A stretch of DNA of 36,330 nt from assembly GCA_964443635.1 (NCBI GenBank), contig CAYUDJ010000002.1, positions 6,565-42,894 on the forward strand. Direction: 5' to 3'. The notes below the pieces were generated by a model. The model was not told the origin of the DNA. It searched no databases and saw nothing but the letters and a program-made list of their open reading frames with translations. Shown piece by piece: positions 3,879 to 36,330 of this stretch (positions within the stretch are counted from its first letter, which is position 1; every line of letters begins with the position of its first letter). The DNA is from an uncultured Candidatus Saccharibacteria bacterium (GTDB lineage Bacteria; Patescibacteriota; Minisyncoccia; Phycocordibacterales; UBA9973). The position numbers and the translations under genes were made by a program.

Positions 3879-5145
3879 ATGAGGTCGTCGCTACAAATGC
3901 GAGAAGCGCGTAGAAAGAAAAGAGTGTCACCGGCATATCAAAGGCAACAAGATTGTGCAAAAAATAACTGATACCAATGAATAGGAGTGCAAATGCAATG
4001 CGTGGATCTGTCGGAATCATTCGCACACTTGCTCGCAAAAAAGTAACCCATACCCACAGGTATGCAGCAAGCCCAACGATACCGGTCATGATGAGTACAT
4101 CGATGAGTTTATTGTGTGCACGATCCGCATACGACTGATCAAACAAATACACTTTTGGGTCATACTGAGCATTCCAGAAAAATGCATAGTTGTCCCATCC
4201 CCACCCGACAGTCTTGCGCAGTGCGCTACTCTCAACAAATCCTTTTTTAGAAATCTCAAGAAAGAGCAATCGCGACTTGATCGTCGAAGTATCAGTACCG
4301 ATTTGCGCGACACGATCAAGTCCTGGAATATGGGTCCAAAATGATGCCCTACTGGTTACACTAAACAATAGCGCAAAGCCAATCACTGCACCCGCAACAA
4401 TGAGTCCAACCTTTCGAAATGAGAACTTGCCGATTGTCACACCTTTGCCATATACCGCCGCAATAGCTGCACAAATAACAGCTGAGATAACCATCGCAAG
4501 AAGCGTCCCTCTTGTTTTTGTAAGGAGGATACCAAACACACTCGCAATGATTGCTGCACCACCGAGCACTGCGAGCCAGCTTTCTTTTTTTTCTCGGATA
4601 CGCACCACATAGATACCAGCAAATAGTGTAAATACATACCACCCCGCAAGAAATATAGGATTTGCCATCAGAGCGCTCGGGCGAGTATTGAGTGCGGTAA
4701 TTTGCGTACACTGCACAATGACCATGATGATGCTGGCAAGCGCGCTCACGATTAACGCAGCGCGCCATTCTCGTTTGCCAAAGAAAACAGTCAGTGCAAT
4801 AAACAACACATAGAGTGAAAAGAAGGTCACAAATCCCTCACCTCTTGAGAGCTCCCCAAAAAATGCGATAAACCGATCTTGTGCGAACAATGTGCTTATC
4901 GCAATGGTTAGCATGCTCGCCGTCACCGCGAGCACTATCGGTGAGCGCAGCTTTTGTCGTACGGTGCTGAGAAATAACTCTTTGTCTTTTCCTACACTTA
5001 TCAAAAATGCGAGCAGTACCACAATAAATGCAACGCCTCGGTATGCGATTACCTTCCCTTCGATATCAGGGTAAAAAGCAATCGATATACTGACGAGTGG
5101 TACGGCGGCAAGGAGAATGAGGAGCCAAGTAGCTGCTTTTTTCAT
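3868..5145 (-). CDS. O-antigen ligase family (Wzy_C; WaaL/PglL-like) polytopic membrane protein
   Basis: ORF 3868-5268. I prefer ATG at 5145 (MKKAATWLLILLAAVPL...) because the longer version runs over a terminator hairpin at 5171-5197. The protein has many hydrophobic segments and the family-type signature ADRAHNKLIDVLIMTGIVGLAAYLW (AHN..L.....G..G). Confidence 0.75.
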   Translation of the reverse strand: MKKAATWLLILLAAVPLVSISIAFYPDIEGKVIAYRGVAFIVVLLAFLISVGKDKELFLSTVRQKLRSPIVLAVTASMLTIAISTLFAQDRFIAFFGELSRGEGFVTFFSLYVLFIALTVFFGKREWRAALIVSALASIIMVIVQCTQITALNTRPSALMANPIFLAGWYVFTLFAGIYVVRIREKKESWLAVLGGAAIIASVFGILLTKTRGTLLAMVISAVICAAIAAVYGKGVTIGKFSFRKVGLIVAGAVIGFALLFSVTSRASFWTHIPGLDRVAQIGTDTSTIKSRLLFLEISKKGFVESSALRKTVGWGWDNYAFFWNAQYDPKVYLFDQSYADRAHNKLIDVLIMTGIVGLAAYLWVWVTFLRASVRMIPTDPRIAFALLFIGISYFLHNLVAFDMPVTLFSFYALLAFVATTSYEK

Positions 5146-19264: not shown

Positions 19265-20698
19265 TTAATTCAATCTTTGGAATAATGGTGTTTCTGGTTT
19301 CTTATTTTCCTTAATAAGCGCAAGGATTTTTGCAGATGTCTCAGGGAGAAATGGCGCAAGCGAAGTTGCAATAGTATGCAACTCTTGCACCAATTTTTTA
19401 ATCATATCTTTTCCAACTTCTGGATCAACCTTCACCACCGAGAATGGTTTCTCCAATGCAATACGCGCATCGAGCTCCCCTATTTTTTGCCAGATGATTT
19501 GCATCGCTATCTGGATATCAAAATGCTCCATCACTTCTGCAAGCTCTGGGATACTATCTTCTGATACCTCAACAGACTCACAGTGCGCTTCGGAAAGCGT
19601 AAGAATGCGAGAAGTCAGATTACCAATACCGTTGGCAAGACCTGATTGAAATGAATCGCGAAAGCGCTCAATCGTAAATGGGCTATCCTCAAAGCTCAAT
19701 ATTTCTTTCAAAAGGAAAAATCGAAGCGCATCAGTGCCGTATTCATTTGCAATAGACAACGGATCAACAACATTTCCCAATGTCTTTGACATACGCAGAC
19801 CTCCATCAGCTGTTATAAATCCATTGATGACGATTTGAGCTGAATTTGGAAGCTCTGCTGCCATGAGCATTGCCTGCCACATGACCGACTGAAAACGTGT
19901 ATTGTCTTTGCCGCAGTATTGTGTTGGCGTACCCTCCGTCCAATATTTCTCAAATTTCTTTTCGTCTTCAGGCCAACCAAGGGTCGAGATATAGTTGGTG
20001 AGTGCATCAAACCATACATACATAACCTGGCTTTCATCTCCCGGTACTGGCACACCCCATGACATTTTTTCTTTCATTCTCGAAATTGAGAAATCTTGGA
20101 GTCCGCGCGAAACAAATGACTTCATTTCATTGAAACGAAATTCCGGGATGACAAACGTTGGATGCTGATCATAAAAGGCGAGTAGTTTTTCTTGAAATGC
20201 AGAGAATTTGAAAAAGTAATTTTCTTCACTGATTACTTCAAGCACAACCCCAGGGTGGAGTGGGCACTCTCCTTCTACAAGCTCTGAGTCGGTCTTTTCG
20301 GATTCGCAGCCGACACAATATTTGGCTTCATAATTTTTTTTATAAATATATCCACGGTCAGCAACGCGCTTCCAAAATTCCTGTGCAGCACGAACATGAT
20401 GCTCATCAGTTGTACGAATAAAATGCACCGCATCAGTTATACCAAATGATGCGACCTGTGTTTTAAATGTTTCAAATCCTCTATCAACAAACGCTTGTGC
20501 GGACATTCCCTCTTCAGCTGCTTTTGTCGCAATTTTTTGTCCATGCTCATCTGTCCCCGTATTGAAAAAAACATCGTATCCTTGCAACATTTTGTATCGC
20601 GCGAATGCATCAGTGCGAACAAATTCTAACGCATGCCCCATATGAAGCGGTGCATTTACATACGGCAATGTGGTCGTTATATAGAAAGGTTTAGACAT
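19265..20698 (-). CDS. metG: methionyl-tRNA synthetase (minimal form, no C-terminal tRNA-binding domain)
   Basis: 477 aa. It has YITTTLPYVNAPLHMGHALE (HIGH-type motif), a zinc-knuckle region YCVGCESEKT...EGECPLH, and GGLRMSKTLGNVVDP (KMSKS-type motif). Confidence 0.93.
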   Translation of the reverse strand: MSKPFYITTTLPYVNAPLHMGHALEFVRTDAFARYKMLQGYDVFFNTGTDEHGQKIATKAAEEGMSAQAFVDRGFETFKTQVASFGITDAVHFIRTTDEHHVRAAQEFWKRVADRGYIYKKNYEAKYCVGCESEKTDSELVEGECPLHPGVVLEVISEENYFFKFSAFQEKLLAFYDQHPTFVIPEFRFNEMKSFVSRGLQDFSISRMKEKMSWGVPVPGDESQVMYVWFDALTNYISTLGWPEDEKKFEKYWTEGTPTQYCGKDNTRFQSVMWQAMLMAAELPNSAQIVINGFITADGGLRMSKTLGNVVDPLSIANEYGTDALRFFLLKEILSFEDSPFTIERFRDSFQSGLANGIGNLTSRILTLSEAHCESVEVSEDSIPELAEVMEHFDIQIAMQIIWQKIGELDARIALEKPFSVVKVDPEVGKDMIKKLVQELHTIATSLAPFLPETSAKILALIKENKKPETPLFQRLN

Positions 20699-23086: not shown

Positions 23087-24508
23087 TTATTTCAACTTAC
23101 TACTCAAGTAGCTTTCAAGCTCTGCAATTGCAATACGTTCCTGTGTTCCTGTATCACGATCACGGATCGTCACCGTATCAAGCAGTTCAGGATTTTCACC
23201 CAATGTATCAAAGTCGATCGTCACACAATATGGTGTACCGATTTCATCCTGGCGACGATAGCGTTTGCCAACATTTCCGTTGTCATCAAATTCACACATG
23301 AAGTTTTGGCGAAGTACTGAAAATACTTCTCGCGCCTTTGCAACAAGTTCTGGTTTATTTTTCAAAAGTGGAAAGACCGCGCATTTGATTGGTGCGAGTT
23401 TTGGATGGAGTGCAAGATACATACGTGTGTCTCCTTCACCAAGGTCTTCTTCACGATACGCATTGTCCAGGAACATCAAGAACAGACGTGCAAGTCCGAC
23501 CGATGTCTCAACGATATGCGGTACAAATCGCTCCTTTGTGTCTTCATCAAAATAGTTGAGATCAACACCCGAGAATTTGGAATGCTGCGAAAGATCCCAA
23601 TCCCCTCGCGCATGCACTCCTTCTACCTCTTTGAAACCACCAAGACCTCCAAAGTTGTATTCGATATCATATGCATCACTTGCATAGTGAGCGAGTTTTT
23701 CATGCTTGTACCAATGAATCTTTTCCTCTGGGATGCCGTAGTCAAGATACCACTGCCATCGCGCATCTTGCCATGATTTGAAGAGTGCTGCAGTCTGGCT
23801 CTGATGATGGAAATACTGCATCTCCATTTGCTCAAATTCTCGTGTACGGAAAATGAATTGGCGAGCATTGATTTCATTTCGAAATGCCTTTCCAACTTGA
23901 GCAATACCAAATGGCATTTTCGGATGCAATGAATCAAGTGTATTTTTATACTCCAAATAAATACCCCCACATGTTTCAGGACGAAGATACACTGGATCTG
24001 CCTCTGCAAGGTTTTCTGTTACTGCGCCAAGATTTGAATTGACCATCAGTGAGAACACTTTCGCTTCGGTAAAGTCACATTTACCACAGTTTGCGCATAC
24101 GAGCTTTTTCTCTGCTTTCAATTTCTCAAGTTCAGTATTGATGAATTCAATCGGCATCTTGTCAGCGACAATACCAAACTGCTCAAGGATGTGATCTGCA
24201 CGATAGCGCGCCTTACAGTTGCGACAATCAATCTGTGGATCGTTAAATCCACCAACGTGTCCGGACGCAACCCAGGTCGTCGGATGCATAAAAATAGCAC
24301 TATCAAGCCCTACCACATCGTCCCGGAGTTGAACCATGGATTTCAGCCATGCCGCACGGATATTGTCTTTCAGTAGCGTGCCGTAGTGCCCATAATCATA
24401 AATACCCGCCATCCCACCATATATTTCAGATGACGGATAGACAAATCCCCTTCGTTTGCAAAGGCTGATAAGTTGTTCCATTGATACGTGACTGGTCATA
24501 TTGGTCAT
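23087..24508 (-). CDS. glyQS: glycyl-tRNA synthetase, homodimeric class II type
   Basis: 473 aa. It has LCKRRGFVYPSSEIYGGMAGIYDYGHYG, YLRPETCGGIY, GIAQVGKAFRNEI.ARQFIFRTREFEQMEMQYF and an anticodon-binding C-terminal part. Confidence 0.93.
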   Translation of the reverse strand: MTNMTSHVSMEQLISLCKRRGFVYPSSEIYGGMAGIYDYGHYGTLLKDNIRAAWLKSMVQLRDDVVGLDSAIFMHPTTWVASGHVGGFNDPQIDCRNCKARYRADHILEQFGIVADKMPIEFINTELEKLKAEKKLVCANCGKCDFTEAKVFSLMVNSNLGAVTENLAEADPVYLRPETCGGIYLEYKNTLDSLHPKMPFGIAQVGKAFRNEINARQFIFRTREFEQMEMQYFHHQSQTAALFKSWQDARWQWYLDYGIPEEKIHWYKHEKLAHYASDAYDIEYNFGGLGGFKEVEGVHARGDWDLSQHSKFSGVDLNYFDEDTKERFVPHIVETSVGLARLFLMFLDNAYREEDLGEGDTRMYLALHPKLAPIKCAVFPLLKNKPELVAKAREVFSVLRQNFMCEFDDNGNVGKRYRRQDEIGTPYCVTIDFDTLGENPELLDTVTIRDRDTGTQERIAIAELESYLSSKLK

Positions 24509-28514: not shown

Positions 28515-31500
28515 TTACTGAATTATTATTTCTTCCCCACTGACAACAACTTCCTTCGCCCCAACCGTCTTCTTCAATTCCTCACCAAACATATCTACAA
28601 TCTCTTGGTATTTTTCTGGAAGGGTTAACATGATCACATCCTGCGGTGCGAGATCTTTTTCTTTGCGGAGATCTTGCACTGCACGGACAAGCTCGCGATA
28701 GTCACCTTCGAGTTTGAGCTCGGGGGTAATTGCTGTATCAATAACAACACTTAATTCATTACCTTCATTAAATTTAACTTCTTTTACATTCAATTCATCT
28801 TTAATTAAAGAAACCATAGAAGCTTTAAGTTGATATCCAAAAGTATTGAGAAGGCCCAAAGGTTGACGGATCGGAAGATTCTCTTTTTTTCGAAAAGCGT
28901 TTCCCATTGTTGAAATTTCTCTTGTTTTTTTCATTTCTTCCAAAATTTCAAAATCAATTTCCGTCGCCTTTGACCAGGTACTCAAATGCACACTTTCTTC
29001 GTCAGTATCAGTTTTCAACTTCTGCCAAAGATCTTCTGTCATGAACGGTGCAAACGGAGCCAACAGTTGGGCCGTTGTTTTCAATACATGATAGAGCGTT
29101 CGTTTTGCATCAGTGTCCCCATCCTTGAGGCGGTCACGGGAACGGCGCAGGTACCAGGTTGAAAGGTCATCGAGGAATTCACGGAGGCTGCGGGTCGGTG
29201 TAAAGAGGTCATACGCATCAAGACCAGTAGTGACTGCTTCGATCGTCTGATTGAGTCGTGCCATGATCCATTGATCAAGGACATTTGCGCTCTCTGTATA
29301 TGAACCTTCGAGGTTCTTGTCGCGATAGAGTTCGTAGAATGAATACACATTTCCAAGGAGATTGAACACCTTGTTGTTGATTTCAGCAACACTCTTCTCA
29401 TCATAGTTCTTGCTCTCGCCTGGCTGGTTCACCGAATACATCCAGAACCGCACCGCGTCCACACCAAACTTATCCATTTGTTCAAATGGTTCGACGATAT
29501 TACCAATCGATTTGGACATTTTTTTGCCATCTTTATCAAGCAAGTGTCCGAGGGAAATGACGTTCTTGTACGGTGCGCCACGCTCCATGAGTACACCCAC
29601 TGCAAGGAGTGTATAGAACCATCCGCGTGTCTGATCGATTGCCTCTGAGATAAAGTCTGCTGGGTATGCCAGAGTCTCTGAGTGTTCGAATGGATAGTGA
29701 TCCTGCGCAAATGGCATCGAGCCCGAGTCGAACCATACATCCATCACTTCCTTTACACGGCGGAATTCCTTGCCATCTTTTTCGAGAATGACGTCATCGA
29801 TATAGGGGCGGTGGAGATCAAGCTCGTAGCTATCATTGTGCGGAAGTGGCGTGAATGAAATCTGACGAATTTCTGCATTATTAAAATTTTTATACTCCCG
29901 AGTCTTTGCAAACATTGTACTGATAGCAATATCATTGGATAGAAGTTCCAATGCGCGAGCAGTCGCACCGTGACATACGATAAGAATATTTTTATCTTTG
30001 TATTTTGCATCGATACTATACAGGAACTCTGCTGACCGTTTGAAAACTTCCGCATATGATTCTCCATCGGAAGTTTTGAACTCGTATCGATCCACTACGT
30101 CTTTGTTGCGTATTTCAAAATAATCTTCGATTGATTTATTAGTGGTATTAAACTCACTTCCAACATTCCATTCCCCTATGCGAGGATCAGGTACTATGTC
30201 CTTTGAAGAAATACCTAGTGCATTTGCAACAAGCTCTGCCGTCTCTCGAGTTCTAACAAAAGGAGAAGTAACAATAAGATCTATATGCTTGTCCGTAAAA
30301 GCTACAGTAGCGGTACGCACCTGTTCTTTTCCTGCCTCCGTAAGAGGGTCATTTGCAGTACTATCACAACTCCATTGTTGCTTTACATTACTTTCAGATT
30401 GCCCGTGACGCATGATCGTATACGTATTACCTGACTTCTTACTGTACTTCTTCAAGGTATCAACCGAATCAACGACAATCTTCTCGCCATCAGCAGCAAC
30501 CCAAATCGGCAATGGTGTCCCCCAGTATCGCTCGCGGCTGATCGCCCAGTCTTTGACCTCGCGGATCCATTCGCCAAAACGTCCTTCTTTGATATGGTCG
30601 GGCTCCCAATTAATCGTGTCATTTGCCTTCATGAGGTCATCGCGAAGTTCTGACATGCGGATATACCAGCTGTCACGCGCATAATAAATGAGCGGTGTCT
30701 TACAACGCCAGCAGTGCGGATATGAGTGCTCGTACTTTTCTTTTCTAAATAATAGTCCGCGATGTGCAAGGTCTTTGATGATATCAATAGCTACTTCTTC
30801 ATCTTTTACAAAACGACCTTCAAGGAAATCAATCCCTGCAATGAACTTTCCTTCTTCATTGACTGTGTGTATCTTTGGCAATCCAGCACTCGTACCAAGC
30901 ACAAAGTCATCTGCTCCATACATCGGTGCAATATGTACAATACCGGTACCGTCAGTTGTGGTGACAAAGTCTGCTGCATATATTTTGTGTGCAGTATCAG
31001 ACTGGAGTGCTGCTACCGTGTAGATCTGCTCATATTCCATACCCACCATCTCACTTCCCTTGTGCTCTGCAACTATTTCATACGGATCGGTAATAAGTGA
31101 GAGTCGCTCTCTTGCAATGACGAGTATTTCTTCCCCTACTTTTATTTCGACATACTCAATATCGGCGCCAACTGCGAGTGCGACATTTCCTGGCAGTGTC
31201 CACGGTGTTGTTGTCCATGCTACAAAATATGCTTTTTCAAATCCTTTGATTGGAAACTTCGCATACACCGTCAGGTCCTTGTCATCATGATATTCTTGTG
31301 CCAACTCATGCGACGCAAGTGTTGTTCCACAGCGAGGGCACCACGGCAATACTTTATAGTCTTTGTAGAGCAATCCCCGATCGTTGACCTTGCTGATGAT
31401 ACTCCAGAGCGACTCCATGTATGATGGATTGAATGTATAGTATGCGGTTTTTTTATCAACCCAGTAGCCGATACGATCAGTGAATACTTCCCAGTCATGA

Positions 31501-31883
31501 ATATATGTAAATACGCTCTCTTTGCATTCTTTATTGAATGCCGCCATACCGTATTTCTCAATATCTTTTTTACTCGCAAGTCCGAGTTTCTTTTCAATCT
31601 GAAGTTCAACAGGGAGACCGTGCGTATCCCACCCCGCACGTCGTGGTACAGAGAATCCTTGCATTGTTTTATAGCGCGGGATTACGTCCTTGAATGCGCG
31701 AGCTTCGAGATGGTGGAGTGCAGGCTTTGCATTTGCAGTCGGTGGCCCTTCGAAAAAGACGAATGGTTCGCCGTCCTTGTTTTTCTCAAGGCTTTTTTGA
31801 AAAATATTCTGTTCCTCCCAAAAAGCCAAAATACGCTCTTCCCGGAGCGCTGCAGCTGATTTTTCAAAGCTTTTTTCTTCCAT
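28515..31883 (-). CDS. ileS: isoleucyl-tRNA synthetase (type 2) with embedded histidine-phosphatase domain
   Basis: The tracked ORF begins with GTG at 31901; ATG at 31883 (MEEKSFEK...) is preferred. It has FFEGPPTANAKPALHHLEARAFKD (HIGH-region variant), the editing-domain motif WTTTPWTLPGNVAL, CWRCKTPLIYYA, WAISRERYWGTPLPIW, DVWFDSGSMPFAQ, QTRGWFYTL and KKMSKSIGN (KMSKS). Confidence 0.93.
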   Translation of the reverse strand: MEEKSFEKSAAALREERILAFWEEQNIFQKSLEKNKDGEPFVFFEGPPTANAKPALHHLEARAFKDVIPRYKTMQGFSVPRRAGWDTHGLPVELQIEKKLGLASKKDIEKYGMAAFNKECKESVFTYIHDWEVFTDRIGYWVDKKTAYYTFNPSYMESLWSIISKVNDRGLLYKDYKVLPWCPRCGTTLASHELAQEYHDDKDLTVYAKFPIKGFEKAYFVAWTTTPWTLPGNVALAVGADIEYVEIKVGEEILVIARERLSLITDPYEIVAEHKGSEMVGMEYEQIYTVAALQSDTAHKIYAADFVTTTDGTGIVHIAPMYGADDFVLGTSAGLPKIHTVNEEGKFIAGIDFLEGRFVKDEEVAIDIIKDLAHRGLLFRKEKYEHSYPHCWRCKTPLIYYARDSWYIRMSELRDDLMKANDTINWEPDHIKEGRFGEWIREVKDWAISRERYWGTPLPIWVAADGEKIVVDSVDTLKKYSKKSGNTYTIMRHGQSESNVKQQWSCDSTANDPLTEAGKEQVRTATVAFTDKHIDLIVTSPFVRTRETAELVANALGISSKDIVPDPRIGEWNVGSEFNTTNKSIEDYFEIRNKDVVDRYEFKTSDGESYAEVFKRSAEFLYSIDAKYKDKNILIVCHGATARALELLSNDIAISTMFAKTREYKNFNNAEIRQISFTPLPHNDSYELDLHRPYIDDVILEKDGKEFRRVKEVMDVWFDSGSMPFAQDHYPFEHSETLAYPADFISEAIDQTRGWFYTLLAVGVLMERGAPYKNVISLGHLLDKDGKKMSKSIGNIVEPFEQMDKFGVDAVRFWMYSVNQPGESKNYDEKSVAEINNKVFNLLGNVYSFYELYRDKNLEGSYTESANVLDQWIMARLNQTIEAVTTGLDAYDLFTPTRSLREFLDDLSTWYLRRSRDRLKDGDTDAKRTLYHVLKTTAQLLAPFAPFMTEDLWQKLKTDTDEESVHLSTWSKATEIDFEILEEMKKTREISTMGNAFRKKENLPIRQPLGLLNTFGYQLKASMVSLIKDELNVKEVKFNEGNELSVVIDTAITPELKLEGDYRELVRAVQDLRKEKDLAPQDVIMLTLPEKYQEIVDMFGEELKKTVGAKEVVVSGEEIIIQ
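29826..30434 (-). other. in-frame histidine phosphatase superfamily (phosphoglycerate-mutase-like) domain inserted in ileS
   Basis: ORF aa ~490-692 carry TIMRHGQSESN (codons verified at 30413-30381), TSPFVRTRETAELV, RIGEWNVGSEF and ILIVCHGATARAL. The segment is flanked by canonical IleRS blocks PLPIW (upstream) and DLHRPYIDD (downstream). Confidence 0.8.
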
Positions 31884-31934
31884 ATGGACTGATTTTAGCA
31901 CAATTTTTTAGAGATGTTTCTTTTCAAGCAATTC

Positions 31935-34361: not shown

Positions 34362-35018
34362 TTATGCGGTGGCAAGTTGGTGCGAAGGAGAATTGATCGC
34401 GCGTTTATCAGCTTCTACCATTTCAATCACCCGAGCAACCAGGCGCTTTGGATCACTATCAAAAATTATTTTATCTCCTGGACGATCGCTCTTTGCAATC
34501 ATATCCTTGATTTGTTCTGCCATGGTCCATGGACCTTCGAGTACACCAATCGGTCGCCCATCTTCAAATGCAATCGTAAACTCGTGAATAGTACCAATAC
34601 GTCCACAACCGATAAAAACAGCATCGCAACTACGGGTGAATATAATGTCACGCCCCGGAAACCCAAATCCGGTATAGATAATGAGATCCATATAATCCAC
34701 CGGGAGACGGTAGTTCTCTATGTGTTCTTTTTCAGTTGCTGCCGGAGAGAGTCCGATTGAAACACCGTGCTCTGCTTTTGCACCCATACATGACCATAAA
34801 GGAAACCCCGTCGTAGCGCCAGTTATCAGTATGCCACCTTGGCGGACAATCTCAGCACCGAGCTCTTTTGCTTTTTCAAGTGCATTGAGTCCACAATGCC
34901 CCGTCTCGGCAGCACCGGAGACCCCAAGCTTGAGCTTCAAATGCCCATGCTTATCATTATTTTCAAGTGGGCCGTTGTAACAGATGTATTGGTTTGTTGG
35001 TGTCGGTGTTGTATCCAT
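34362..35018 (-). CDS. LOG-family / TIGR00725-like Rossmann-fold protein
   Basis: 218 aa. It has LGVSGAAETG...AKELGAEIVRQGGILITGATTGFP...GVSIGLSP and CDAVFIGCGRIGTIHEFTIAF (cf. the LOG PGGxGTxxE motif). Confidence 0.65.
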   Translation of the reverse strand: MDTTPTPTNQYICYNGPLENNDKHGHLKLKLGVSGAAETGHCGLNALEKAKELGAEIVRQGGILITGATTGFPLWSCMGAKAEHGVSIGLSPAATEKEHIENYRLPVDYMDLIIYTGFGFPGRDIIFTRSCDAVFIGCGRIGTIHEFTIAFEDGRPIGVLEGPWTMAEQIKDMIAKSDRPGDKIIFDSDPKRLVARVIEMVEADKRAINSPSHQLATA

Positions 35019-35022
35019 TTTT

Positions 35023-36330
35023 TTAATTGCAATCCAATTCTACCACGTCATTTGCTTGTGGCGCGAAAGCCATGATGCCAAGTGTATCGCGCAGACGCTG
35101 GGTGAGAAACAGCGCCGATGCGGGTTCCCCCATGACAACAAACACTTTCTTCACGGTGTCTTGGACCTGTTCGACAAACTCCACCAAATGATCAGAGTCT
35201 TTGTGTCCAGAATATCCGTCGATAAATACGACATTGGCACGTACAGAAATACTTTGTCCATTAATATGCACTTCCTTTGCGCCTTCTTGGATTGCACGAC
35301 CCATCGTGCCCTGTGATTGATACCCGGTCAAGAGTAGCGTGTTGTTCGGGTCAGGTAAATAATGAGCCTCATGATGAAGCACACGCCCACCATTACTCAT
35401 CCCACTCCCCGCAATCACGATCTTTGGATTGGGTGCGTGGATGATATCTTTTGACTCTTCGGTGAGCAGTGTGGATTTGAGTCCCGGAAAATTAAAGATG
35501 TCGTCGCCATCCCCGATCTGCTTGCGCGCAAAGTCATTGAAATATCTCGTAAAGCCACCATATATTTTCGTCAGACGGATACCAAGTGGTGAATCAAAAA
35601 ATATCGGCATCTGCGGCACACGATCATGTTCAACGAGCTGATCGATTTCAAACAAGAGTTCTTGAGAACGCTCGAGTGAGAACGTCGGAATGATGAGTGT
35701 GCCCTTGCGGCGAAAGTTGTCCTCGATTGTCGCCTCAAGTTTGATACGCCGTTCGTTGCGGTTTGAGTGATTGCGGTCACCGTACACACTTTCCATGACC
35801 ATGTAGTCGACGTTTTTCAAACTTTCGGTGTCATTGAGTAACGGAGACGGTGAGTTTCCAAGATCCCCAGTAAAGATAATCTTTTTATTATTATATATAA
35901 TCTCGAGCATACCAGAGCCGAGAATGTGCCCCGCATCGCGGTATCGGAAAATGAAGGGACCAATCGCAAGGTCCTGATGATAATCAATGACCTTCCAACT
36001 TGAAAATACTTTTTCTAAAATTACAGGACTATATATTTTGCTGAGCAACTCATTTTCGCTATGCGAAAGAATATTCGCAGTATCATCAAGCATGAGCTTG
36101 GTTATATCCTTGGTAGGAATAGTCGAATAGATGGTACCCTTGAACCCATCATGAATAAGTTTTGGAATGCGGCCGATATGGTCGATATGTCCATGAGTAA
36201 TAAAAAGGTAGTCGATAGTTGCAGGGTCGTAGACAAATGGTTCCCAGTTCTGCTCATCCGCCATTTTTGTCCCCTGCGAGAGTCCGCAGTCGACGAGAAA
36301 CTTAATCCCTTCCGCTTCAACCAAAAAATT
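35023..36330 (-). CDS. MBL-fold beta-CASP family RNA-metabolising hydrolase (5' end outside window)
   Basis: It has the HxHxDH motif ITHGHIDHIGRIP, with GIKFLVDCGLSQG before it, and DYMVMESVYGDR, PTFSLERSQELL and GYSGHKDSD later on. Homologs have about 20 more N-terminal residues, so the true start probably lies beyond 36330. Confidence 0.8.
   Translation of the reverse strand, partial: NFLVEAEGIKFLVDCGLSQGTKMADEQNWEPFVYDPATIDYLFITHGHIDHIGRIPKLIHDGFKGTIYSTIPTKDITKLMLDDTANILSHSENELLSKIYSPVILEKVFSSWKVIDYHQDLAIGPFIFRYRDAGHILGSGMLEIIYNNKKIIFTGDLGNSPSPLLNDTESLKNVDYMVMESVYGDRNHSNRNERRIKLEATIEDNFRRKGTLIIPTFSLERSQELLFEIDQLVEHDRVPQMPIFFDSPLGIRLTKIYGGFTRYFNDFARKQIGDGDDIFNFPGLKSTLLTEESKDIIHAPNPKIVIAGSGMSNGGRVLHHEAHYLPDPNNTLLLTGYQSQGTMGRAIQEGAKEVHINGQSISVRANVVFIDGYSGHKDSDHLVEFVEQVQDTVKKVFVVMGEPASALFLTQRLRDTLGIMAFAPQANDVVELDCN

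Follow-up and report, generated by a model that had tools for sequence, protein, structure and literature searches.

The general idea of joining a second enzyme to an aminoacyl-tRNA synthetase (aaRS), or a histidine phosphatase to an enzyme of nucleic acids, has precedents. The CP1 editing domain of class-Ia synthetases is nested in the catalytic domain and receives the tRNA 3' end, an NCBIfam model describes an isoleucyl-tRNA synthetase (IleRS) that carries a GNAT-type acetyltransferase, and fusions of RNase H with an acid phosphatase have been described. Here we report on the ileS gene of a 36,330-nt stretch of DNA (contig CAYUDJ010000002.1; referred to as the window), which encodes a type-2 IleRS with a histidine phosphatase nested inside it. 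We find that this architecture is real, widespread, and un-annotated. A preliminary description of the window was not aware of any described aaRS with an embedded phosphomonoesterase, and the literature indeed yields none: no description of a histidine phosphatase in any aaRS was found in full-text searches, in surveys of IleRS architecture (one of which covered ~109,000 bacterial IleRS), in AARS Online, or in a large survey of aaRS evolution.

The gene occupies positions 28515..31901 of the window on the minus strand, as do all of its features given below, and forms a single open reading frame (ORF) of 1128 aa that starts with GTG and is uninterrupted, in agreement with the preliminary description. 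Residue numbers refer to this ORF and coordinates to positions in the window; a database copy of the protein (P0121) starts 6 codons downstream and is 1122 aa long. Profile searches with the translated ORF returned significant matches to both PF00300 and TIGR00392. The latter (NCBIfam, ileS) scores 877.2 bits against a cut-off of 621.4 and matches in two stretches because of the insert; the Pfam tRNA-synt_1 match (E=2e-119) is likewise broken into two stretches, with PF00300 between them. The His_Phos_1 (PF00300) core covers aa 496-654 (29940..30416; E=1.2e-30, 107.1 bits versus a gathering threshold of 21.7), and the four histidine-phosphatase motifs that had been read from the translation were located as TIMRHGQSESN (aa 495-505), TSPFVRTRETAELV (aa 545-558), RIGEWNVGSEF (aa 574-584), and ILIVCHGATARAL (aa 639-651).

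The putative catalytic residues are R498-H499-G500 (30402..30410), holding the predicted nucleophilic His and the first catalytic Arg, with G500 conserved in at least 90% of homologs; R550, the likely second catalytic Arg, in an SPFVR motif (30252..30254); E577, the predicted general acid (30171..30173); and H644, the likely second active-site His, in a CHG motif (29970..29972). Across 121 full-length homologs, conservation is 98% or higher at R498, H499, N505, S546, R550, E577, and H644, and the R-H, S, R, E, R, and H positions are invariant in 20 inserts that are 29-54% identical to that of the window. The insert as a whole changes faster than its host, mean column conservation being 0.65 for the insert versus 0.75-0.81 for the synthetase body in the same 121 homologs. 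The complete R/H/R/E/H set is thus conserved among close and distant homologs, so that the insert looks catalytically intact, as had been proposed, and purifying selection acts on the phosphatase active site.

When modelled alone with AlphaFold2 (AF2), the insert gives a confident fold (pLDDT 91.7, pTM 0.90) that Foldseek matches, with a probability of 1.00 and a TM-score of ~0.7, to glucosyl-3-phosphoglycerate phosphatase (GpgP), PspA, and PhoE. Profile matches in the PDB are led by PhoE 1EBB (4e-26) and PspA 4IJ5, and by profile and fold together the nearest solved proteins are PhoE/YhfR, PspA, GpgP, CobC, a riboflavin-pathway phosphatase, and TIGAR. The preliminary description had called the domain a PGM-like histidine phosphatase. 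Its assignment to the superfamily stands, and more narrowly to branch 1; a PGM-type or cofactor-dependent mutase identity is ruled out by the NCBIfam cut-offs (dPGM_arch, 66 versus 225 bits; PRK01295, 34.7 versus 316; GpmB, 48.9 versus 261) and by the fold matches to small-molecule phosphatases, and dPGM matches in the PDB span the N-terminal half of the insert only. Scores against CobC (TIGR03162, 73.2 versus 162.9) and PspA (55.5 versus 350) also lie below their cut-offs. By profile and predicted fold, then, the insert is assigned to the branch-1 histidine phosphatases as a PhoE/PspA/GpgP-like, small-molecule type domain of ~205 residues; since it misses all NCBIfam equivalog cut-offs, no substrate can be transferred to it from its relatives.

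The flanking IleRS blocks, W452 to W467 and D695 to F731, lie where they had been reported, and the segment 29826-30434 to which attention had been drawn corresponds to aa 490-692 of the ORF. The ~200 extra residues then noted become ~205 by alignment: the inserted segment is aa 485-694 (29820..30449), which is missing at exactly that alignment position in IleRS whose phosphatase is encoded by a separate upstream gene (see below), although its C-terminal stretch, PLPHNDSYEL, may belong to the type-2 IleRS itself. Where the insert is lacking, patescibacterial IleRS have ~19-25 residues from 'P[IV]W' to 'DLH[RK]'. In an alignment of 116 IleRS with and without the phosphatase domain, the insertion point is identical in all nested forms aligned, and lies at the tip of a hairpin between 'WG.P.P[IV]W-CxxC-...GSxxEL' and 'DLH[RK]P[YF]ID...CxC', ~25 residues N-terminal of DVWFDSG. 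In insert-less IleRS and in many nested IleRS this hairpin, with which CP2 ends, is a CxxC...CxC zinc knuckle with all four Cys. Its left arm in the window protein (aa 466-484, IWVAADGEKIVVDSVDTLK, 30450..30506) aligns with 'IW.C..C....GS..EL' of insert-less IleRS and its right arm (aa 695-720, DLHRPYIDDVILEKDGKEFRRVKEVM, 29742..29819) with 'DLH[RK]..ID....C..C'; all four knuckle Cys are gone in the clade of the window, where the arms read VAADG and EKDG.

A whole-protein search returned 120 best homologs (61-100% identity, 1056-1189 aa), all of which contain PF00300 together with IleRS domains. These derive from independent assemblies, on contigs of up to 804 kb, of Candidatus Nomurabacteria, Paceibacterota, and Minisyncoccia, and go by no database name other than 'isoleucyl-tRNA synthetase' or 'class I tRNA ligase family protein'. 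The insert profile matches 526 clusters (50% identity) at E<=1e-30. A scan of GTDB (one genome per species, insert alignment of 8 sequences) revealed at least 590 species loci encoding a relative of the insert; in each of the best 80 the relative is nested in ileS, and all carry Patescibacteria labels save for one probable mis-binned 'Nitrospira' contig. The nested-phosphatase architecture is not rare: hundreds of species-level Patescibacteria genomes have it as their normal IleRS. The preliminary description had allowed that such an insertion might prove to be a common and annotated feature of IleRS; it is common (at least 590 species-level genomes), but annotation as a bifunctional protein was found for none. 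Patescibacteria-type ileS::His_Phos genes also occur in bins with other labels, namely L010 (Nitrospira sp.) and P0031 (Sedimentisphaerales), the first of which is likely mis-binned given that the same study yielded a Parcubacteria bin (L026).

The same survey bears on whether the gene could be an artefact, be it a chimeric assembly, two genes joined by sequencing error, or a decayed phosphatase remnant. The databases do contain 'PF00300-only' proteins and split calls of ileS (P0040, P0025), as such an origin would lead one to expect, but they are pieces of frameshift-broken ileS on error-prone contigs, and the intact architecture recurs in independent assemblies with its catalytic residues conserved. 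Mis-assembly, which had been raised as a concern, is excluded by the presence of the same join in more than 120 full-length homologs and in 80/80 of the best GTDB loci, and we regard the chance of any such artefact as negligible. P0040 and P0025 were accordingly rejected as free-standing relatives, and fragmented ileS calls of this kind give rise to spurious stand-alone 'histidine phosphatase' entries in databases. At L081 (4496-7869) and L082 (3657-7147), ileS is broken into 3-4 successive ORFs (N-terminal / His_Phos / C-terminal), splits that most likely stem from indel errors in these contigs (ENA ERZ250394xx).

Genuine free-standing relatives nevertheless exist as proteins of ~190 aa that match the insert profile at E ~1e-50. 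They are found in Patescibacteria, where they are annotated 'histidine phosphatase family protein/PhoE', and their genes lie in the order argS - His_Phos - ileS, co-directional and only a few bp apart, the IleRS encoded there (931-1025 aa) being without the insert; at locus L083, for example, the phosphatase gene ends 1 bp from the start of an insert-less ileS. Domain identity between free and nested copies reaches ~78%, which supports homology of the nested domain with the free-standing operon gene between argS and ileS. A set of 80 metagenome loci was fetched with a profile of the free-standing family, the sampling being seeded from ileS-linked copies. The phosphatase lies directly upstream of ileS in 44 of these loci (median gap ~32 bp), within 1.4 kb of ileS in 4, and nested in 22, and the contig ends less than 1.7 kb past the phosphatase with no ileS in view in the remaining 10 (among them L168, a TsaC fusion). 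Thus, in 70/70 evaluable loci of a sample so seeded, the phosphatase is linked to ileS, either upstream or nested. Nested loci contained no second upstream copy, and argS directly abuts ileS in 52 of 79 nested loci. In the lineages examined the upstream gene and the nested domain exclude one another, and the genetic linkage of the phosphatase to ileS is ancient and near-obligate.

Neighbour-joining trees of the IleRS body require at least 5 changes between the nested and upstream states in 60/60 bootstraps, compared with 23-32 for shuffled labels; these are distance trees built without a species tree, and the number and direction of events are not claimed. In the corresponding tree of the phosphatase domain alone, which is short and poorly resolved, nested and upstream copies interleave (9 changes). 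The trees of the IleRS body are taken only as evidence of interconversion or exchange between the two states. The isoelectric point (pI) is 9.9 for free copies versus 5.8 for nested ones, the insert of the window being acidic (net charge -4, pI 5.5); however, IleRS bodies shift likewise, and the charge of the domain is therefore uninformative as a test of RNA binding.

The window shares with distant loci such as L083 the downstream order ileS - recO - DUF11/CLIPPER protein - class-II aaRS - M16 peptidase, and has a P-type ATPase upstream of ileS in place of argS. Its recO ORF is short (191 aa, RecO_N only). Inside the window, 13 kb of the minus strand contain three aaRS genes: one for MetRS (19265-20698), one for a class-II aaRS whose anticodon domain is of the HGTP type (23087-24508), and ileS. 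Upstream of the P-type ATPase, 34362-36324 on the minus strand encodes a SLOG/LOG-like protein (PF18306) and an RNase J-like beta-CASP metallo-beta-lactamase RNase, the ORF of which runs to the window end. At loci L085/L086 (8652-9819), an RHH antitoxin, a ParE/YafQ-like toxin, and an HD_3 phosphohydrolase are encoded between the free-standing phosphatase and ileS, with NUDIX and PolX-like genes close by.

The phosphatase family has also entered other positions and other proteins. Among the best 150 matches to the insert profile, 121 are IleRS-linked and 26 are short. Other IleRS carry phosphatase domains in tandem at the insertion site of the window (site A), between DxWFxSG and DQxRGWF (site B), or ~70 residues C-terminal of KMSKS (site C), and IleRS of 1379-1468 aa (P0286, P0324, P0317, P0346, P0265, P0293) contain at least two phosphatase domains, in tandem or at separate sites. 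Of these, P0286 recurs on six contigs of up to 1.06 Mb, and one relative is labelled Candidatus Peribacteria. A ValRS fragment (P0241; L170/L171 366-3851) contains four phosphatase domains, one after 'SPQWF' and three after 'WGHRIPVWY'. TsaC/Sua5 (threonylcarbamoyl-AMP synthase) with a C-terminal phosphatase was found at two loci (L169 977-2140 and L168 1615-2946), the TsaC parts of which are 55% identical. IleRS, ValRS, TsaC, and the neighbouring ArgRS are all tRNA-related enzymes that convert ATP to an acyl-adenylate and inorganic pyrophosphate (PPi).

The synthetase part of the window protein is complete. The AF2 model of the whole protein (pLDDT 81, pTM 0.71; insert blocks 73-95) finds its best PDB fold matches in the type-2 enzymes (IleRS2) 8C8W and 1ILE. 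The preliminary description held the HIGH region, the CP1 editing motifs, and KMSKS to be intact; this is so for the latter two, whereas the HIGH position is not canonical and reads ALHH (aa 61-64, 31710..31721), with A61, L62, H63, and H64 invariant in 67 homologs. The A/GXHH signature is fully functional in IleRS2 and confers mupirocin hyper-resistance (Brkic et al., PMC10485003), and the signature of Deinococcus radiodurans IleRS2, of the mupirocin hyper-resistance type, is exactly ALHH (PMC10485003); that of the window therefore reads as a known functional variant of HIGH. Both canonical HYGH and G/AxHH are seen among relatives, in nested and upstream-gene lineages alike. The CP1 editing domain extends approximately from aa 200 to 400 (30702..31304), as placed by its editing motifs WTTTPWTLPGN (aa 229-239) and GTGIVH (aa 318-323), which are invariant in the 67 homologs. 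At the invariant block DVWFDSG (aa 721-727, 29721..29741) the catalytic Rossmann/HUP fold enters its second half, a boundary placed by residue 513 of PmIleRS2 (PMC10485003). This block is followed by the KMSKS loop motif (aa 794-798, 29508..29522; invariant in the 67 homologs), the anticodon-binding domain (Anticodon_1 PF08264, aa 876-1015, 28857..29276; E=5e-33), and the type-2 C-terminal domain DUF5915 (PF19302, aa 1047-1122, 28536..28763; E=5e-15). The IleRS of the window is genuine, full-length, and of type 2.

The best overall explanation, to which we give slightly less than an even chance, is that the nested domain is an active phosphatase, functionally coupled to class-Ia aminoacylation, with a phosphomonoester on a small ligand as its substrate. 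An active and coupled phosphomonoesterase is suggested by the bifunctional polypeptide, the purifying selection, and the near-obligate linkage to ileS. Placed at the tip of the CP2-end hairpin, with a predicted active site of H499 as nucleophile together with R498, R550, E577, and H644, the phosphatase would cleave a phosphomonoester of a small ligand, probably of nucleotide type, that has to do with the ATP-dependent adenylate-forming step. This ligand might inhibit or contaminate the synthetic site or arise there as a by-product, and beside that site nesting would fix the phosphatase at 1:1 stoichiometry. A coupled small-molecule substrate, taken as a claim of its own, is offered more tentatively. 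The relatives by fold, together with the TsaC fusions and the acidity of the insert, favour a small substrate, probably of nucleotide type, over the tRNA 3' end, and the TsaC fusions and the small-molecule-phosphatase fold make us lean towards a by-product or inhibitor rather than a tRNA end.

Several observations weigh against this explanation. Free-standing copies act in trans and there are several insertion sites, and therefore an exact geometry is not needed; evidently, these facts also fit mere co-expression. The nearest characterised relatives are metabolic phosphatases without a link to translation, and conserved yet functionally unrelated neighbours of ileS are known from other bacteria (ribF-ileS-lspA). 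In L145 and L156 the gene directly before the nested ileS is one for a canonical family-I pyrophosphatase (PPase), and PPi, the most obvious by-product shared by the partner enzymes, is therefore already handled. Finally, the contig with the ValRS fragment has 2x coverage, and its ORF stops at a TAA inside the fourth phosphatase domain and then continues in frame, so that this case is possibly a sequencing error or a pseudogene. Recoding of UGA was rejected for this internal stop, the codon being TAA.

The alternative closest in weight, though in our judgement unlikely, is that an ordinary metabolic phosphatase upstream of ileS, with no mechanistic link to it, was repeatedly absorbed into permissive loops on the surface of essential neighbours, which would ensure its expression in deletion-biased genomes. 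The metabolic character of the nearest relatives in sequence and structure, the action of free-standing copies in trans, and the faster evolution of the insert relative to the synthetase body are all consistent with this, the several sites and tandem copies speak against a precise geometric need, and the proximity of the donor gene would account for ileS being the usual recipient. It is harder to reconcile with the 70/70 linkage over deeply diverged lineages and the either/or pattern, or with independent capture at a minimum of three IleRS sites as well as by ValRS and TsaC, given that, in a small genome, ATP-dependent adenylate-forming enzymes related to tRNA account for only a few per cent. 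We see about as little likelihood in the proposal that Patescibacteria repeatedly built a hydrolytic 'service' domain into IleRS (at three sites or more), ValRS, and TsaC, a domain that would serve the aminoacylation cycle in cis, either by removing a (pyro)phosphate from the tRNA 3' end or by destroying a phosphorylated inhibitor or by-product; if true, a cis-acting service domain would constitute a previously unrecognised quality-control or repair step in translation. Healing of tRNA ends specifically, that is, removal of a 2'/3'-phosphate, of the opened product of a 2',3'-cyclic phosphate, or of a toxin-added (pyro)phosphate from the 3'-terminal adenosine before charging, is less probable again. 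Every fusion partner and every neighbour in the operon has to do with tRNA (IleRS, ValRS, ArgRS, and TsaC, with infC-rpmI-rplT and smpB nearby), and class-Ia synthetases already carry a nested hydrolase, CP1, with a comparable layout; however, TsaC does not handle the tRNA 3' end, the nearest relatives of the domain act on small molecules, the acidic insert of the window gives no sign of an RNA-binding surface, and a repair activity that serves all tRNAs would hardly benefit from attachment to just one or two synthetases.

Hydrolysis of the PPi released in amino-acid activation, which would pull adenylate formation forward, appears improbable to a still greater degree. In its favour, the partners share PPi-releasing adenylation chemistry, the sites of insertion lie next to the DVWFDSG strand or C-terminal of KMSKS, which are ATP/PPi-handling elements, and a ppa gene too is found directly upstream of ileS. 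Branch 2 of the histidine phosphatase superfamily can cleave phosphoanhydrides (PMC13573052). That same ppa gene would nevertheless make a second PPase redundant: L145 encodes a family-I PPase (PF00719, 204 bits; 4035-4529) directly upstream of a nested ileS::His_Phos, with a 14-nt overlap and nusA before it, and L156 has a matching PPase, seen as a tblastn match only, in the same place (~4056-4526). PPi moreover diffuses freely, so that little would be gained from tethering, and we know of no branch-1 histidine phosphatase that acts as a PPase. A literature search for PPase loss in Patescibacteria gave no relevant result. The insert is probably not the PPase of the cell.

An embedded phosphatase in an aaRS, one of the best-studied groups of enzymes, is an architecture of which no earlier report was found, and it provides a hitherto uncharacterised phosphatase family with a functional partner that can be tested. 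It hints that tRNA charging, or the nucleotide economy that goes with it, has a need so far overlooked in ultra-small bacteria that do not grow in culture on their own, and represents a natural experiment in which a whole enzyme has been placed inside the catalytic core of an essential protein. Nested IleRS are, in addition, under-annotated in databases, where they appear as 'class I tRNA ligase family protein'.

Compared with known IleRS2 (8C8W of Priestia megaterium, 1ILE of Thermus thermophilus), the window protein has a like fold (TM 0.72-0.87, target-normalised) at 32-36% identity, and shares with these and with the D. radiodurans enzyme the CP1 editing motifs, KMSKS, and the type-2 C-terminal domains; it alone has a ~205-aa phosphatase inside the CP2-end hairpin, and its clade has lost the four zinc-binding Cys of that hairpin. 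A second enzymatic domain on IleRS has a precedent in NF040702 (IleRS, N-acetyltransferase domain-containing), but that domain is a GNAT, and with this model the window protein reaches 346 where 1999 is the cut-off, with no acetyltransferase match in Pfam. The RNase H/acid phosphatase proteins (Rv2228c type, NF005567) resemble it in that a branch-1 histidine phosphatase is joined to a nucleic-acid enzyme, and NF005567 is the top NCBIfam phosphatase match of the insert, though at 77.6 bits versus a cut-off of 326 the insert is not a member; Pfam and NCBIfam scans detected no RNase H domain in the window protein, and the fusion there is end-to-end with RNase H, whereas here the phosphatase is nested in IleRS. 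With PhoE/YhfR (1EBB, 1H2E), PspA (4IJ5), GpgP (4PZ9, 6S2Q), CobC (6NRU), and HFP (9MMH), the insert has in common the PF00300 fold, a length of ~190-200 aa, and the complete RHG...R...E...H catalytic set, at an identity of only 20-25%; those enzymes are linked to metabolic pathways, in contrast to the family of the window, which is nested in or operon-linked to aaRS. A second nested hydrolase has its model, as a concept, in the CP1 editing domain of IleRS, ValRS, and LeuRS, which is likewise hydrolytic and nested in the Rossmann-fold catalytic domain. CP1, however, is ancient and universal and hydrolyses mis-acylated tRNA esters, while the phosphatase is lineage-specific, is kin to a separate operon gene, and would employ phospho-histidine chemistry.

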